Below, piece after piece: positions 35,822-59,937 of a stretch of DNA of 64,000 nt. Under the pieces are notes generated by a model. It made no database searches. It was not told the origin of the DNA and saw only the letters and a list, made by a program, of their open reading frames with translations. Within the stretch, counting starts at the first letter, position 1. Every line of letters starts with the position of its first letter. Source of the DNA: Candidatus Micrarchaeia archaeon (GTDB taxonomy: Archaea > Micrarchaeota > Micrarchaeia > Burarchaeales > JACRGF01); assembly GCA_038870455.1 (NCBI GenBank), contig JAWCPB010000001.1:21449-85448 (forward strand), given 5' to 3'. Made by a program: the position numbers and the translations under genes.

Positions 35822-36022
35822 CATCAGAACCAACCGATGACTTTTCCGTCAACGCTTTTGCCGGATCGCCGGCAAAAGGGTTGTATCGTTGGTTCCGATA
35901 CCTCCGAACCGCGGGAACCTACGGTTCCCCCAGTTCCAGGTTCCTCCTGACCCCTCCCTTTTCCGTCAACGCTTTTGCCGGATCGCCGGCAAAAGGGTTG
36001 TATCGTTGGTTCCGATACCTCC
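35822..36022. repeat. composite hairpin-repeat cluster: 65-bp perfect direct repeat (35841-35905, 35958-36022) flanking module B (35904-35958), preceded by module C
   Basis: Two identical copies of cttttccgtcaacgcttttgccggatcgccggcaaaagggttgtatcgttggttccgatacctcc, each with internal inverted repeats. Confidence 0.92.
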
Positions 36023-56374: not shown

Positions 56375-57301
56375 CTAGTAGGCCAGCCTGGCCTGCGGAG
56401 GCTTGGGAGCCAGTGCCTGGGCGACCGCCTGCCCGATGCCAGCGGCTGCCTTCTCCACTATCTTCTCCCACCATTCTTTCTTTTTTTCAAGCACGCACTC
56501 GCTGGGCTCGCCAGTAATGTTTCCAAGGGACGCGGCTCTCGCCAGCGCATCTTTCCTGGAGCCCACCGCATCCACCAGGCCGTAGCGCAGGGCCTGCCTG
56601 CCGGTGAGAATGCGCGCATCCAGGATTGTGTTGAAGTTGGCCGCGAAGTTCGGCCTCCCGCTCCTCTCTTTCCACACCGCGTCCCTGAACTCCCCGAAAA
56701 CCTCGTCAATAATTTCTTGAACCAGCCGCTTTTCCTTTTCCGTCATGGGCCTGCTGGGGTCGCCGATGTCCTTGAGCTCGCCGCTCTTTATGATGGTCAC
56801 GTTATAGCCGATTTTTTCGAACAGGCCCGACAGGTCTTCGAAAGTCGCTCGGGCGCCAATGCTTCCCGTAATCGCGTCCGGGTCGCTGATGATCTCATCC
56901 GCCCCAACAGCCGCATAATAACCCCCGCTTGCGGCGACTTCCCTGAAAAACGCAATGGTCGGCTTCTTGAAGTCCCTCACTCCCTCATAAATCTCCCTGC
57001 TTGCCACAACGCTTCCGCCCGGTGAATCGACCTCGACAAGCAGGGACTTGATGTCGCCCCTACGCTCGGCTTCCTTGAGGAGCTCGAGCACATCGTCAGA
57101 GCCTATTGTTCCGGCAGAGAAGAGGCCGGCCTCCTCGCTCGTCGTAGTGATGACTCCCCTGATGGGGAGCACGCCAACGCATGCGGGGGGAAACACGGCA
57201 TTATAGACTGCAAAGGCAACGACCGCGATGACAGCAAGTGCGATCACGCCTGCGGCAAGCAGAGACAGCCCGATGACGATTGCGTTTGCTTGTTTCCCCA
57301 T
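56375..57301 (-). CDS. sppA: signal peptide peptidase SppA (S49)
   Basis: VDSPGGS, AASGGYY, TGSIG, KSGELKD, TGRQA...GLVD. Confidence 0.93.
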   Translation of the reverse strand: MGKQANAIVIGLSLLAAGVIALAVIAVVAFAVYNAVFPPACVGVLPIRGVITTTSEEAGLFSAGTIGSDDVLELLKEAERRGDIKSLLVEVDSPGGSVVASREIYEGVRDFKKPTIAFFREVAASGGYYAAVGADEIISDPDAITGSIGARATFEDLSGLFEKIGYNVTIIKSGELKDIGDPSRPMTEKEKRLVQEIIDEVFGEFRDAVWKERSGRPNFAANFNTILDARILTGRQALRYGLVDAVGSRKDALARAASLGNITGEPSECVLEKKKEWWEKIVEKAAAGIGQAVAQALAPKPPQARLAY

Positions 57302-57350
57302 CCGCTCGCCTCAGAAAACCCATTAAATATTTGCAAATCATTATAAAAGC

Positions 57351-57872
57351 ATGGCCGACCTCGCATATTTCCTCGAACTATTCATATTCATACTCCCCGC
57401 GTACTTCGCAAACTCCACGCCGGTCATCTTCGGGGGAGGCACGCCCGTTGATTTCGGCGTAAAGCTGTGGGACAGGCGGAGGCTCTTCGGCGACGGAAAG
57501 ACGTGGAGGGGCCTCGCGGCCGGCTTCATTCTCGGAACAGCCGCAGGCTTCGTGGTGGCGTCCTACAAGGCGAGCGGTGACTACTTCGTCCTCGCGCCCC
57601 TGCTCGCCGGCGGCGCGCTGCTCGGCGACCTCCTCGGCTCGTTCATAAAAAGGCGCATGGGAATGCGCAGTGGCCAGCCCTCCCTGTTCATGGACCAGCT
57701 GCTTTTTCTCTTCACAGCCCTCGCCCTCGCCTTTCCCGTTCTCGCAAAACCAAGCCCGCCCATCACGCTCACGCCCGAGGGCCTTGTTTTCCTCGTCATC
57801 CTCACCTACGTTCTTCACGTTGGGGCAAACTGGCTGGCGAACCGGCTGGGGCTCAAGAGAGTGCCGTGGTAA
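57351..57872 (+). CDS. carS: CDP-archaeol synthase
   Basis: PAYFANSTP, PVDFG, GDGKTWRG, GDLLGSFIKRR, DQL, terminal VPW. Confidence 0.92.
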   Translation: MADLAYFLELFIFILPAYFANSTPVIFGGGTPVDFGVKLWDRRRLFGDGKTWRGLAAGFILGTAAGFVVASYKASGDYFVLAPLLAGGALLGDLLGSFIKRRMGMRSGQPSLFMDQLLFLFTALALAFPVLAKPSPPITLTPEGLVFLVILTYVLHVGANWLANRLGLKRVPW

Positions 57873-57882
57873 GCCAGGCGAC

Positions 57883-58110
57883 ATGATCCGCCTCCGCAGC
57901 GAAACCGCGGCAAAACTCGCCGCGCTTCGCGAGTACGCCCGTGAGACTTACGACGAGCTGATCAACAAACTACTGGGACTTGTGCCCCTTGGCGATGAAG
58001 AGGGTGCGTCCACCGCAGAATTTCGCGCGAGCTGGATGCGCGCGCACGAGGATTTGAGAAAGGGGCGAGTGGTTTCCCACGCTGAAGTGCAGAGAAGGCT
58101 GGGGTTGTAG
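57883..58110 (+). CDS. putative antitoxin
   Basis: ETYDELINKLL, GRVVSHAEVQRRLGL. Directly upstream of a RelE-like ORF. Confidence 0.75.
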   Translation: MIRLRSETAAKLAALREYARETYDELINKLLGLVPLGDEEGASTAEFRASWMRAHEDLRKGRVVSHAEVQRRLGL

Positions 58111-58111
58111 C

Positions 58112-58354
58112 GTGGCCTTTGCCATAGAGTGGTCCGAAGAGGCTCTTCGGCAGCCGGCTCGAGCACGAAGACGCCGAACGCTTGGTGAAAAACTCGAGGA
58201 AGCTGCGAATCCCCAGCACTTTTTCAAGCGCCTTGCCGGCCGCTCGGAATGGAAGCTGCGGGCTGGATATCACCGGTTGATTGCGTACGTTTCGTTTTTA
58301 AACAAGAGAATTTTCGTAGTGACACTTGGACACAGAAAAATTATATACAAATAG
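58112..58354 (+). pseudogene. RelE/ParE-family toxin, probably degenerate
   Basis: IEWSEEAL, NPQHFFKRL, KLR, VVTLGHRKIIYK. The internal helix reads family-like only in a shifted frame. Confidence 0.65.
58335..58347 (+). promoter_or_regulatory. BRE/TATA promoter of the tRNA gene
   Basis: GAAAAA-TTATATA about 25-35 nt upstream of the tRNA 5' end. Confidence 0.6.
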
Positions 58355-58370
58355 CGTTCATAATAATCAA

Positions 58371-58493
58371 AGCCCCGTCGTCTAGTGGTCAAGGATAGCG
58401 GGCTCTGGAAAACCTTTCGCCGGCGAACCGGCAAAAGCGTTTACGGAAAAACGGTGAAACCCGCGGACATCGGTTCGAATCCGGTCGGGGCTA
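58371..58493 (+). tRNA. tRNA-Gln(CTG) with a 50-nt intron (58409-58458) at canonical position 37/38
   Basis: Acceptor AGCCCCG/CGGGGCT+A (A1-U72), D-arm TAGTGGTCAAGGA, anticodon stem GCGGG/CCCGC, loop CT-CTG-G|A, T-loop TTCGAAT. CCA not encoded. Confidence 0.92.
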
Positions 58494-58508
58494 TTCGAAC
58501 CCAGGGGG

Positions 58509-58563
58509 CCGAACCGCGGGAACCTACGGTTCTCCCAGTTTGAGGTCCCCCCAGACCCCTCCC
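58509..58563. repeat. hairpin repeat, module B
   Basis: 49 of 55 nt identical to 35904-35958. Confidence 0.88.
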
Positions 58564-58571
58564 TTGTTGAT

Positions 58572-58811
58572 TTGATGAAGCAAAACGCGCGGCATCGCTT
58601 CAAAGAACATTGGCTTCGGTCGCTGGTCAAGACGATTACGTACAGGCTCGCGATTCTCATACTCGATTTTGCGGTCGTGTATCTGCTCACCGGAAGGCTC
58701 GAGATTGCGGCGTGGTTCATGCTCGCCAGCAACACTTACACGAGCATAGGCTATTACTTGCATGAGAGAATCTGGGATAAAATAGCGTGGGGAAAAAAGC
58801 GGGACAGTTAG
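58572..58811 (+). CDS. DUF2061-like small membrane protein
   Basis: RSLVKTITYR...YLLTG...YYLHERIWDKIAWG. Confidence 0.82.
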   Translation: MMKQNARHRFKEHWLRSLVKTITYRLAILILDFAVVYLLTGRLEIAAWFMLASNTYTSIGYYLHERIWDKIAWGKKRDS

Positions 58812-58812
58812 C

Positions 58813-59937
58813 CTACTTCTTTTTCGGCCTGCCTCTCTTCGCCTTCTTTTTGGGCCTGAAAACGCTGGGAAGCCTCTTCTCCGGAGGCTTTTTCTCCTCC
58901 TCTTCCTCCTTAACGAGCTCTTCTTCTTTTTCCTCAGGCTCGCCTACTGTAATCCGGAGAATTTCAGTGGGCTTTTCCGGCTCGGCCGGCGGCGTGATTT
59001 CGGCGGCGTCCTTCGCCTTCTCGAATTCTGCTGTAACGGGCTCGTCGGGCTCAGGCTGAGACGAAGACTCGGTGCCCGCTTTTGGGAAGGGTGGCTGCGG
59101 AGGCAACACCGGCGGCTCTTCCTTGGGCCTCGTTGCATAGAAGTAGAATCCCCACACGAGCGCCACGAGCACGAGCAGGGCGAAGGCCAGGAAAAGCGGA
59201 AGCAAATCAACTATCTTGTTCGCTTCAGGCGGGAGGTCTTTCCTCAGCGCGGCGGTTATCGTGAGGGGCGCTTCCGCGGCGGCAACTTTTGTAGTGAGCT
59301 GCCCCTGCGACAGGGAAACGCCGTCGTCCCTCGCGATGTAAGAGTAGAATCCCTCGCTTGAGGCCTTGAAGCTTGCCAAGCCCGCCGGGTTGGTGACCAG
59401 CGTGAAAGTGCTCTCGGGCCCCTGCACTTCGATGCGCGCCCCGGAGAGCGGCGTGCCGTCGAGCGCGCGCAGCTCGAGCACGACATTCCCGCCCAGCTCA
59501 GCCTGCGCAGGGGCCTTCAGTCGCGCGAGGATCGGCAGCGCAGAAACAACGGGGGCCGGCCACGCGCTTTCCGAAACGTTCCTCCACTCGCTGAGCTCGA
59601 AGGCAAAACGCTCGCTCGCGCCCGCCGCGATGTTCGACAGCGTGCAGGAGACGAGGAGGTCAGCCGCAGTGCAAATCGGGAGGACGCTGGCCTGCGAGCC
59701 GGCGTGCTCGGAGGGAAGCGTTTGGTTGATCACGAGCGTTCTCATCGCCGAATCGCGGAGGTTTGTTATCGTGAAGTCAATGCGTGTCTTGCAGACCGTT
59801 TTCGAGGCGTGGGTGATCGCATCGACAACCTGGCTGCAGACGGGGCTTATCGCGCGAGAGACGCCGACATCCGGAGCCGCGTAGGCCAGGCTGGCAAGCA
59901 AAAAGATGAAGAGCGCTGTCTTGGGCAGGCTGGTCAT
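58813..59937 (-). CDS. surface protein (signal peptide, Ig-like domains, TM helix, charged cytoplasmic tail)
   Basis: Signal peptide, beta-rich body, one TM helix, P/E/K-rich tail. Confidence 0.75.
   Translation of the reverse strand: MTSLPKTALFIFLLASLAYAAPDVGVSRAISPVCSQVVDAITHASKTVCKTRIDFTITNLRDSAMRTLVINQTLPSEHAGSQASVLPICTAADLLVSCTLSNIAAGASERFAFELSEWRNVSESAWPAPVVSALPILARLKAPAQAELGGNVVLELRALDGTPLSGARIEVQGPESTFTLVTNPAGLASFKASSEGFYSYIARDDGVSLSQGQLTTKVAAAEAPLTITAALRKDLPPEANKIVDLLPLFLAFALLVLVALVWGFYFYATRPKEEPPVLPPQPPFPKAGTESSSQPEPDEPVTAEFEKAKDAAEITPPAEPEKPTEILRITVGEPEEKEEELVKEEEEEKKPPEKRLPSVFRPKKKAKRGRPKKK

Follow-up and report, generated by a model that had tools for sequence, protein, structure and literature searches.

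Homologous hairpin cassettes in the introns of tRNA-Gln(CUG) and other tRNA genes of a Micrarchaeota genome

We analyzed a 64,000-nucleotide (nt) stretch of DNA, referred to throughout as the window, from contig JAWCPB010000001.1 (positions 21,449 to 85,448) of a Candidatus Micrarchaeia archaeon assembly (GCA_038870455.1), in which a tRNA-Gln(CUG) gene at 58371-58493 on the plus strand is interrupted in its anticodon loop. The source genome (Micrarchaeota, 1.04 Mb, 51 contigs, 90% complete) is called G000 below, and the window lies on its contig C1. The insert is probably a genuine intron of this gene, of the protein-spliced archaeal type, and a member of a lineage-wide family of homologous cassette introns. 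A preliminary description of the window had taken most of the intron for a copy of a dispersed intergenic hairpin repeat, and its core observation holds: the 38 nt at 58413-58450, compared with the opposite strand of 35842-35879 and 35959-35996, agree with each at 35 of 38 positions, a result obtained in 0 of 100 dinucleotide-preserving shuffles. The intron and the dispersed repeat are truly connected, at a level of similarity well beyond chance. Judged from sequence, most tRNA introns of G000 share one cassette, and this cassette is not mainly an intergenic repeat.

An interrupted tRNA-Gln(CUG) gene

The Rfam tRNA model (RF00005) covers 58371-58493 at 44.8 bits (cut-off 29) with a 53-nt insert in the anticodon loop and is the sole Rfam match at gathering level in the window; the hairpin cassette itself matched no Rfam family at gathering score, either in the window or in the contexts fetched around other copies. 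When 58409-58458 was removed in silico, or the equivalent register 58410-58459, which leads to the same mature tRNA, ARAGORN recovered a tRNA-Gln(CTG) of 73 nt with a standard cloverleaf. Its mature anticodon loop, CUCUGGA, is the same as that of an intronless, syntenic orthologue (CTCTGGA) in a second genome of the same genus (G001, 95% complete). The 5' exon (58371-58408, +), which ends with the anticodon CUG and G37, was delimited against G001:C1:29602-29679 (89.9% over 79 nt, including the upstream flank), and the 3' exon (58459-58493, +) by aligning window 58465-58494 with G001:C1:29567-29596 (96.7% over 30 nt). The orthologue and ARAGORN together place between them a 50-nt intron (58409-58458, +) at position 37/38, composed of a 41-nt structured hairpin module followed by an 8-nt tail. 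ARAGORN at default settings reported zero tRNAs in the window. With the option -i it called 'tRNA-Pyl (cta) i(37,50)', which we rejected, as the call starts the intron two bases too soon and CUG is the anticodon of the G001 orthologue; excision of 58407-58456 in silico reproduces the CUA artefact.

The preliminary description had suggested looking for an intact tRNA-Gln(CTG) elsewhere, and no second gene of this kind was detected in G000 at its 90% completeness. A tRNA-Gln(UUG) gene with a cassette intron in its D-loop lies at G000:C1:14135-14258, 7 kb upstream of the window. Among the glutamine codons of 357 open reading frames (ORFs) of at least 350 codons, a crude set in which spurious frames are possible, CAG accounts for 87% (3958 CAG vs 598 CAA). 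With CAG dominant and this gene the sole tRNA-Gln(CUG) detected, one expects the CUG tRNA to be functional.

That the repeat was merely collapsed into the tRNA gene during assembly is scarcely credible. Cassette-family repeats do end many G000 contigs, and the fragmentation of the assembly at such repeats is a point against our reading of the locus. Against misassembly, a 2243-nt contig of the probable source run, which probably derives from the same reads as the assembly and is thus not fully independent, spans 57900-58900 with no difference at a depth of 10.5. Intronless joints (58408>58459) present in two DNA runs, X1 (depth 3.1) and X2 (depth 13.7), were rejected as evidence of polymorphism and assigned to other community members with at least 85% likeness; X2 is a possible source of G001 and was not used as independent evidence.

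Structure and covariation of the cassette

A covariance model of the cassette (R1), built on 26 copies (alignment A2), matches the intron at 58410-58450 (+; G000:C1:79858-79898) with 51.2 bits and an E-value of 2.3e-9. Within this hairpin intron module, which we term the A module, the 5' strand of the outer helix, AAAC (58410-58413, +), pairs with GTTT at 58439-58442 and covaries across the family; a predicted inner hairpin, which belongs to the GCCGG..CCGGC subtype and has a single C.A mismatch, occupies 58414-58437 (+); and the conserved single-stranded module end ACGGAAAA (58443-58450, +) is nearly invariant in A2. The gene-specific tail ACGGTGAA (58451-58458, +) contains GGTG (58453-58456), which can pair with CUCU at 58403-58406, and the AA of the tail forms with A58459 a 3-nt 3' bulge, AAA. 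About 12 nt of the intron had at first been left unexplained; this is correct for the 38-mer, but once the outer helix is included the covariance-model match leaves only the 8-nt tail. The tail is itself identical at 6 of 8 positions to the last eight bases of the cassette, a resemblance that hints at where the tail came from.

Across the family the cassette measures about 41 nt, with an outer helix of 4 bp. Its 5' half comprises the outer strand N-A-A-C, a C facing C, and C-U4, which opens the inner hairpin, and its 3' half comprises A4-G, which closes the inner hairpin, a C, the outer strand G-U-U-N' and the nearly invariant end described above. The tRNA-Gln copy has one C fewer than the intergenic copies and carries a C bulge in place of the C.C mismatch. 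The distal stem and the loop of the inner hairpin are variable, with 26 distinct versions in G000, all of which fold. The sequence GCGUUGAC is flanked by mirror-symmetric A-tracts that both face one U-tract, an arrangement that, were the cassette a mobile intron as tentatively considered below, may provide a conformational switch or a triplex in its spread.

The preliminary description had also drawn attention to a compensatory change in the outer stem, from caac/gttg in the intergenic copies to aaac/gttt in the intron. The change is real, and it affects a pair that is variable throughout the family: in a set of 34 distinct copies from G000, outer pair 1 is C-G in 19, A-U in 3, G-C in 4, U-A in 2, G-U in 2 and a non-pair in 4 (one of which is a mis-parsed copy), and outer pair 2 is A-U in 30, G-C in 3 and A.C in 1. 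The aaac/gttt variant also occurs in two D-loop introns (C1:20620, C3:1869). In an alignment of matches from relatives, 93.2% of cells are paired, compared with 80.4% after shuffling; both sides have changed at 9 of 13 pairs; the covariation score is 0.289 vs 0.097 in shuffled alignments and was reached by 0 of 500 shuffles; and sliding the partner columns lowers pairing to 41-55%. This alignment (39 matches, 37 distinct) was fitted to the model and therefore leans towards it, a bias from which the pair count in G000 is free. On this comparative evidence the aaac/gttt change is a single instance of family-wide covariation.

Copies within tRNA genes and elsewhere

Searches anchored on the conserved 3' part and the 5' C/T run identified 50 full cassette copies in G000, and R1 gave 52 matches at E<=0.01 and, in the search of the order described below, at least 51 at E<=0.001. 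Thirty of the 50 copies lie within tRNA genes, every one in sense, with 15 in the D-arm (after the acceptor/D-arm), eight in the anticodon loop and seven in the T-arm; these context classes were assigned from upstream flanks read by eye and from fixed patterns. The eight anticodon-loop hosts are Gln CUG, Cys GCA, Glu UUC, Arg CCG (two), Val CAC (two) and Leu GAG, and the hosts of cassette introns as a whole include tRNAs for Gln, Cys, Glu, Arg, Val, Leu, Lys and Thr. The first module of each tRNA intron stands directly at the predicted 5' splice site, and near-identical cassettes are common to tRNA genes of differing identity and intron position. The remaining 20 copies fall in other contexts: eight identical ones between inverted arms, and 12 in repeat islands, tandem arrays and odd contexts. 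The earlier premise of an intergenic repeat is not borne out by this distribution, nor by that in relatives, where 17 of the 20 best matches fetched are in tRNA genes.

Some observations tell against this assignment. When introns were excised in silico and the products passed to ARAGORN, no more than 8 of the 34 gene groups yielded a tRNA. The Rfam tRNA model detected one in 2 of 20 fetched contexts, which makes it unusable for defining context classes. Both checks break down on the many genes that hold two or three introns. In addition, the intergenic copy at C32:38-80 and C1:57290-57332 have a unique flank in common, and the former could have been duplicated in assembly. Over the whole genome the Rfam tRNA model gave 15 matches, and ARAGORN with introns allowed made 25 calls, of which several have an intron or an identity that is hardly plausible; numerous G000 tRNA genes contain two or three of the cassette introns.

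Several copies stand in unusual surroundings. Tandem cassette arrays with a 61-nt period lie at G000:C43:4973-5123 and G000:C19:1120-1223, shortly 3' of TATA-like boxes and with no upstream tRNA exon; the C19 array is conserved at G001:C3:81071-81133 but with a different inner stem. These arrays could be free-standing cassette genes or split-tRNA halves. At G000:C6:23100-23240 (-, locus L072) a cassette lies between sequences resembling an archaeal C/D-box small RNA, 3' of a TATA-like TTTTTATAT, in the order GTGATGA, about 12 nt, CAGA, cassette, GTGATGA, about 15 nt, CTGA. The bases preceding this cassette (AGGTGAT) recur in the tail after it. L072 gave no Rfam match, and three odd contexts gave chance microRNA matches only. 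At G000:C8:13006-13200 (locus L086) a degenerate cassette-like sequence adjoins, on the opposite strand, a partial match to archaeal RNase P RNA of 31.1 bits, which is below gathering score and cut by the end of the fetched stretch.

Relatives and the age of the intron

Among 29 genomes from the order, 14 have the cassette by R1 at E<=0.001. Up to 150 candidates were scored per genome, so that the counts are lower bounds: at least 20 matches in G017, 16 in G016, 15 in G013, 13 in G025, 11 in G014 and 10 in G001. Zero R1 matches were obtained in six genomes belonging to one family and in six that come from a single genus of another. With stricter filters, an evenly drawn set of 151 genomes from the phylum gave 16 that carry the cassette at E<=1e-5, all of them in the same class. 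The best 20 matches fetched, from 10 relatives, comprise 17 in tRNA genes (D-, anticodon- and T-loop), one in 16S rRNA and two in unclear contexts, as assigned by reading the flanks. The rRNA cases are seen in G001, where a cassette lies inside the 16S rRNA gene (G001:C3:4662-4701), adjoining a conserved ..CCAGTGGCG motif, and where tandem cassette units at G001:C3:1-120 and G001:C11:1-90 border, on either side, an interruption of the 23S rRNA gene that breaks the assembly.

The history of the tRNA-Gln intron was read from two family members, G001 and G002 (same family, other genus, 89% complete). G001:C1:28102-31060 is collinear with window 56505-59692, with identities of 81.3% across 1375 nt on the 5' side of the tRNA and 79.3% across 1204 nt on its 3' side, and at the orthologous position both exons align and the intron is absent. 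The comparison with relatives that had been proposed yielded an empty site, one that is intronless altogether and in synteny. In the same interval, 57873-58331 (459 nt 5' of the tRNA gene) is unique in G000, and G001 has 16 nt between the flanking alignments instead. The tRNA-Gln(CUG) gene of G002 has a D-loop intron and no intron in its anticodon loop.

The stem subtype of the intron is likewise restricted. A pattern search for GCCGG..CCGGC found 16 sites in G000, 0 in G001 and 0 in G002, the 16 comprising the anticodon-loop introns of Gln, Cys and Glu, one T-arm intron, two arrays and eight arm-enclosed copies. The G001 tRNA-Cys has a 17-nt intron that lacks the cassette but has the same GCAG pairing strand, and the G001 tRNA-Glu(UUC) has a 22-nt intron that keeps only CAAC..GTTG of the outer helix; in all, the Gln intron is present in G000 and absent from G001, and the Cys and Glu introns differ in kind between the two. 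From these comparisons the tRNA-Gln(CUG) intron is most likely an acquisition of the G000 lineage that postdates its separation from the sister species, since a single gain on that branch is a simpler history than two losses and fits a genome-specific burst. One stem subtype appears to be involved in such a burst in G000, where it is also found in the anticodon-loop introns of tRNA-Cys and tRNA-Glu.

A recent gain has to be set against a different history, in which an intron at 37/38 of tRNA-Gln is old in the order, was inherited by G000 and was cleanly lost from G001 and from the CUG gene of G002; the 92% likeness of the G000 intron to other copies in that genome would then result from gene conversion between cassettes, with the conserved flanks serving as homology arms. 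Cassette-type introns do occupy 37/38 of tRNA-Gln in G025, G014, G009, G006 and the UUG gene of G002, and the intron tails in G025, G014 and G009 (..GGAAAA(n)GGGAGAA|A; in G025 ..CGGAAAAACGGGAGAA|A) are very similar to the G000 tail, findings that count against a recent origin. Orthologous cassettes can also differ in the inner hairpin between G000 and G001, as do those at G000 C19:1120 and G001 C3:81091 and, in a second case, those in the D-loop intron of tRNA-Thr, and such differing inner stems suggest conversion between copies. An old intron would, however, require two precise losses within the family as opposed to one gain, no reverse transcriptase was found in G000 that could explain precise loss, and the GCCGG stem subtype is absent from both G001 and G002. 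We consider ancient inheritance unlikely, though it is the most serious competitor to a recent gain.

Predicted splicing

G000 encodes the enzymes that splicing would require. A 387-aa EndA on C25 matches PDB 4fz2, the ARMAN-2 enzyme, over residues 3-387 (E 3e-135) and is of the epsilon2 type, in keeping with the placement of G000 in the Micrarchaeota; an RtcB (PF01139) scores 477.5 bits. The epsilon2 EndA of the relative ARMAN-2 cuts both strict and relaxed motifs in vitro (PMC3239211, in its passages on this enzyme). We note that the RtcB match at G000:C16:7577-10399 (-) falls in two pieces 1.4 kb apart within one stop-free frame of 1087 aa, which looks like an intein-bearing gene, and that a second ORF, at G000:C2:67432-67674 (locus L014), matches the N-terminal and catalytic domains of EndA at 51 and 36 bits and, as listed, has a long basic N-terminal extension.

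In the proposed mechanism, the cassette would sit at the predicted 5' splice site and be followed by a short gene-specific tail that pairs with the exon. In the tRNA-Gln transcript, pairing of the tail GGUG with CUCU at loop positions 32-35 would combine with the anticodon stem and the AAA bulge into a relaxed motif of the HBh' or bulge-helix-loop (BHL) kind, which the epsilon2-type EndA would cut, after which RtcB would join the exons. The preliminary description had pointed to this relaxed motif of CUCU and GGUG, and the pairing is possible as it claimed: the central helix would consist of C-G, U.U, C-G and U.G, followed by the 3-nt bulge AAA. In this productive fold the 3' half fits the motif, and the 5' site lies within a 3 x 10 internal loop. 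The fold of minimum energy instead pairs CGGA of the cassette with UCUG of the anticodon loop, and at -24.0 kcal/mol is 5.7 kcal/mol better than the productive fold (-18.3 kcal/mol). This competing fold, as modelled, cannot place the 3' cut correctly. The energy difference speaks against splicing as proposed, as do the U.U mismatch in the central helix and the presence in relatives of GGAG where G000 has GGTG. One RNA run of the same study yielded no contig on the stretch.

For the tRNA-Cys gene of G000, the minimum-energy fold of the anticodon arm with its intron is a clean HBh' motif with the anticodon stem, a 3-nt bulge UCA and a 4-bp helix CUGC/GCAG, beyond which AGA faces ACGGAAAA and the cassette hairpin closes. 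Most introns of the family show a further feature, which we call the clamp, in that the bases after GGAAAA are complementary to the 5' arm of the cassette itself. The clamp duplex reaches -5 kcal/mol or lower in 24 of 36 clusters, and its mean energy of -5.76 kcal/mol compares with -4.19 for shuffled tails and -5.56 for the tails of other copies. The tails thus outperform shuffled sequence but not each other, indicating a shared design with no gene-specific fit. In T-loop introns the clamp, by reading, gives a textbook 3-4-3 motif, whereas the Gln and Cys introns, with weak values of -3.4 and -0.9 kcal/mol, are without a clamp.

A less favorable interpretation of the same folds makes the gene a disrupted pseudo-tRNA whose transcript would stay unspliced, CAG being read by tRNA-Gln(UUG) or by a gene outside the assembly. 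The unfavorable energy of the productive fold, the mismatch in its central helix, the incompleteness of the genome and the existence of the tRNA-Gln(UUG) gene on C1 would all agree with this. We regard it as very improbable, given that the exons are intact and form a standard 73-nt cloverleaf, that CAG makes up most glutamine codons in long ORFs, that pairing in the outer helix was kept through a double change, that the single-copy tRNAs Leu GAG and Val CAC have, by reading, equally imperfect central helices, and that relaxed motifs are within the in vitro range of the epsilon2 enzyme of the relative. Splicing of the tRNA-Gln(CUG) intron is, on these models, plausible.

Intergenic copies and the route of insertion

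The two intergenic copies in the window lie at 35842-35883 (-; R1 match G000:C1:57290-57331) and 35959-36000 (-; R1 match G000:C1:57407-57448), each with 55.5 bits and 35 of 38 positions identical to the intron. Within 35822-36022 each cassette is enclosed by two mutually inverted arms, which for copy 1 were read from the sequence as 35822-35841 and its partner 35884-35905. Eight such arm-enclosed copies, on contigs C1 (two), C9 (two), C18, C32 and C44 (two), are mutually identical. Elsewhere in G000, and in G001, these arms surround a different hairpin, and a similar junction of arm and cassette occurs at one orthologous promoter-proximal locus (G000 C19:1120, G001 C3:81071-81133); of the three family members searched, G000 alone yielded the arm-cassette-arm composite with the GCCGG stem subtype. 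The ORFs flanking 35822-36022 are both on the minus strand, so that transcription of the spacer, if it occurs, would read these cassettes in sense. The arms pair with each other, and inspection of the composite found no 3-4-3 bulge-helix-bulge (BHB). We read the intergenic element, from its arrangement, as a palindromic carrier resembling a miniature inverted-repeat transposable element (MITE) that would have captured an intron cassette and then multiplied. Of the two origins that the preliminary description had offered, an intron as the source of the intergenic copies fits the data better, in that these copies are identical and their subtype is present only in G000 of the three family members; the direction of transfer, from intron to intergenic sequence, is itself likely rather than observed.

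The other origin, a safe haven in which a MITE or an element like the repetitive extragenic palindromes (REPs) landed in a short intron that was already there, is not supported for this gene, whose syntenic orthologue is intronless, and we hold it to be improbable. The case for it comes from tRNA-Cys, where the 17-nt G001 intron occupies the same site with the same GCAG strand and the cassette is present there in G000, so that in that gene a short intron could have received the cassette. For tRNA-Gln(CUG), G002 likewise has no anticodon-loop intron, and the G000 intron consists of the cassette plus 8 nt with no remnant of an older intron. This copy has no inverted arms, which are confined to the intergenic composite and without which it does not answer to the definition of a MITE, and no direct repeat was seen at its borders. 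A REP or REPIN would be expected to have a partner transposase of the REP-associated tyrosine transposase (RAYT) type, and 0 matches to the Y1 transposase/RAYT family (PF01797) were found in G000 at its 90% completeness.

The transposase search covered Y1 and TnpB; TnpB reached only 19.9 bits, below the cut-off, and no target duplication was seen at the junctions of the Gln and Cys introns. These results, like the failure to find Y1 and reverse transcriptase in G000, tell against our main reading of the intron, which they provide with no mechanism of insertion. A tentative possibility, which we hold to be less likely than not, is that the cassette is an active, self-contained mobile intron, spread by host functions only and in a current burst in G000. 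Such a cassette would bring with it half of the splice motif, namely the helix of the 5' site and usually the 3' arm that clamps its 5' end, so that a spliceable intron could arise de novo in tRNA, rRNA or small RNA wherever the tail bases pair with the exon. Spread might proceed through the splicing endonuclease and ligase acting in reverse, or through hairpin-guided DNA recombination or conversion, and the burst would account for the 16 copies of a subtype found in neither family relative, for the new tRNA-Gln intron and for capture by the palindromic element.

A second, unrelated dispersed repeat lies in the 3' flank of the tRNA-Gln gene (58508-58564, +) and is 89.5% identical over 57 nt to window 35904-35960. 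It also matches 9 other contigs, with several of the matches beside or inside other tRNA genes.

Discussion

The closest known case is that of the transposed tRNA introns of Thermoproteales. In Thermoproteales, similar introns occur in different tRNA genes, and a DNA-level mechanism is thought to be responsible (Fujishima et al. 2010, as treated in the passages of PMC4090602 on intron transposition). The two systems share a host endonuclease of broad specificity and a recent gain reached by inference (PMC4090602, PMC3239211). They differ in lineage and enzyme, Micrarchaeota/DPANN with an epsilon2 EndA here and an (alpha-beta)2 enzyme there, and, as far as those passages describe the Thermoproteales introns, in that the present family has a cassette of about 41 nt whose structure is supported by covariation and conserved across many families, together with tandem repeats in introns, rRNA introns, and copies outside tRNA genes in a palindromic carrier. 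Closer in lineage is ARMAN-2, 'Ca. Micrarchaeum acidiphilum', in which relaxed tRNA introns (hBH/BHL) at many positions accompany an epsilon2 EndA (PMC3239211; PDB 4fz2), so that lineage, enzyme type, relaxed motifs and the breadth of intron positions are all alike. The main-text passages on ARMAN-2 mention no intron sequence families or copies outside tRNA genes, and the supplementary tRNA tables of that source may bear on the point. We found no prior description of the cassette in the literature covered, in which subscription journals were mostly outside scope and supplements were excluded.

The cassette resembles REPs, REPINs and MITEs in being short, palindromic, multi-copy and non-coding, with intergenic copies between inverted arms. 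Unlike them it is oriented, being in sense in all 30 of its tRNA-gene copies, and its first module stands at the predicted splice site. Its sense orientation and placement therefore point to a constraint at the RNA level that is absent from REPs and MITEs.

Differences in tRNA intron content between very close genomes, such as those between G000 and G001, have been reported for Caldiarchaeum and for Asgard archaea (PMC3293823; preprint 10.64898/2026.10.13.758758). For Caldiarchaeum, gain of a tRNA-Thr intron through an integrating element has been proposed, whereas, set beside the relevant passages of that account, the G000 case involves no att site borne by an integrase (PMC3293823). The Asgard archaea have gained tRNA introns repeatedly, and the corresponding sections of the preprint report neither a mobile-element route nor any general way of arrival; almost no sequence families extend across tRNA types there, while in G000 most introns share one cassette (10.64898/2026.10.13.758758).

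The arrival of introns in archaeal tRNA genes is still to be explained, a problem that both of these studies raise, and in the sources on Thermoproteales cited above the introns are known to move by a vehicle that is left undefined. The tRNA-Gln locus offers a defined vehicle, with a conserved, covarying structure and with a filled and an empty site in two syntenic genomes of the same genus. Its stem subtype is seemingly expanding now, and the type of host enzyme that would splice it has already been purified and crystallized from a relative. With a defined vehicle, filled and empty sites and a purified enzyme type in hand, both the spliceability conferred by the cassette and its insertion therefore become testable by ordinary assays, namely in vitro cleavage and population sequencing. 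For these genomes more broadly, tRNA inventories are probably understated, as standard finders miss or miscall genes such as tRNA-Gln(CUG).

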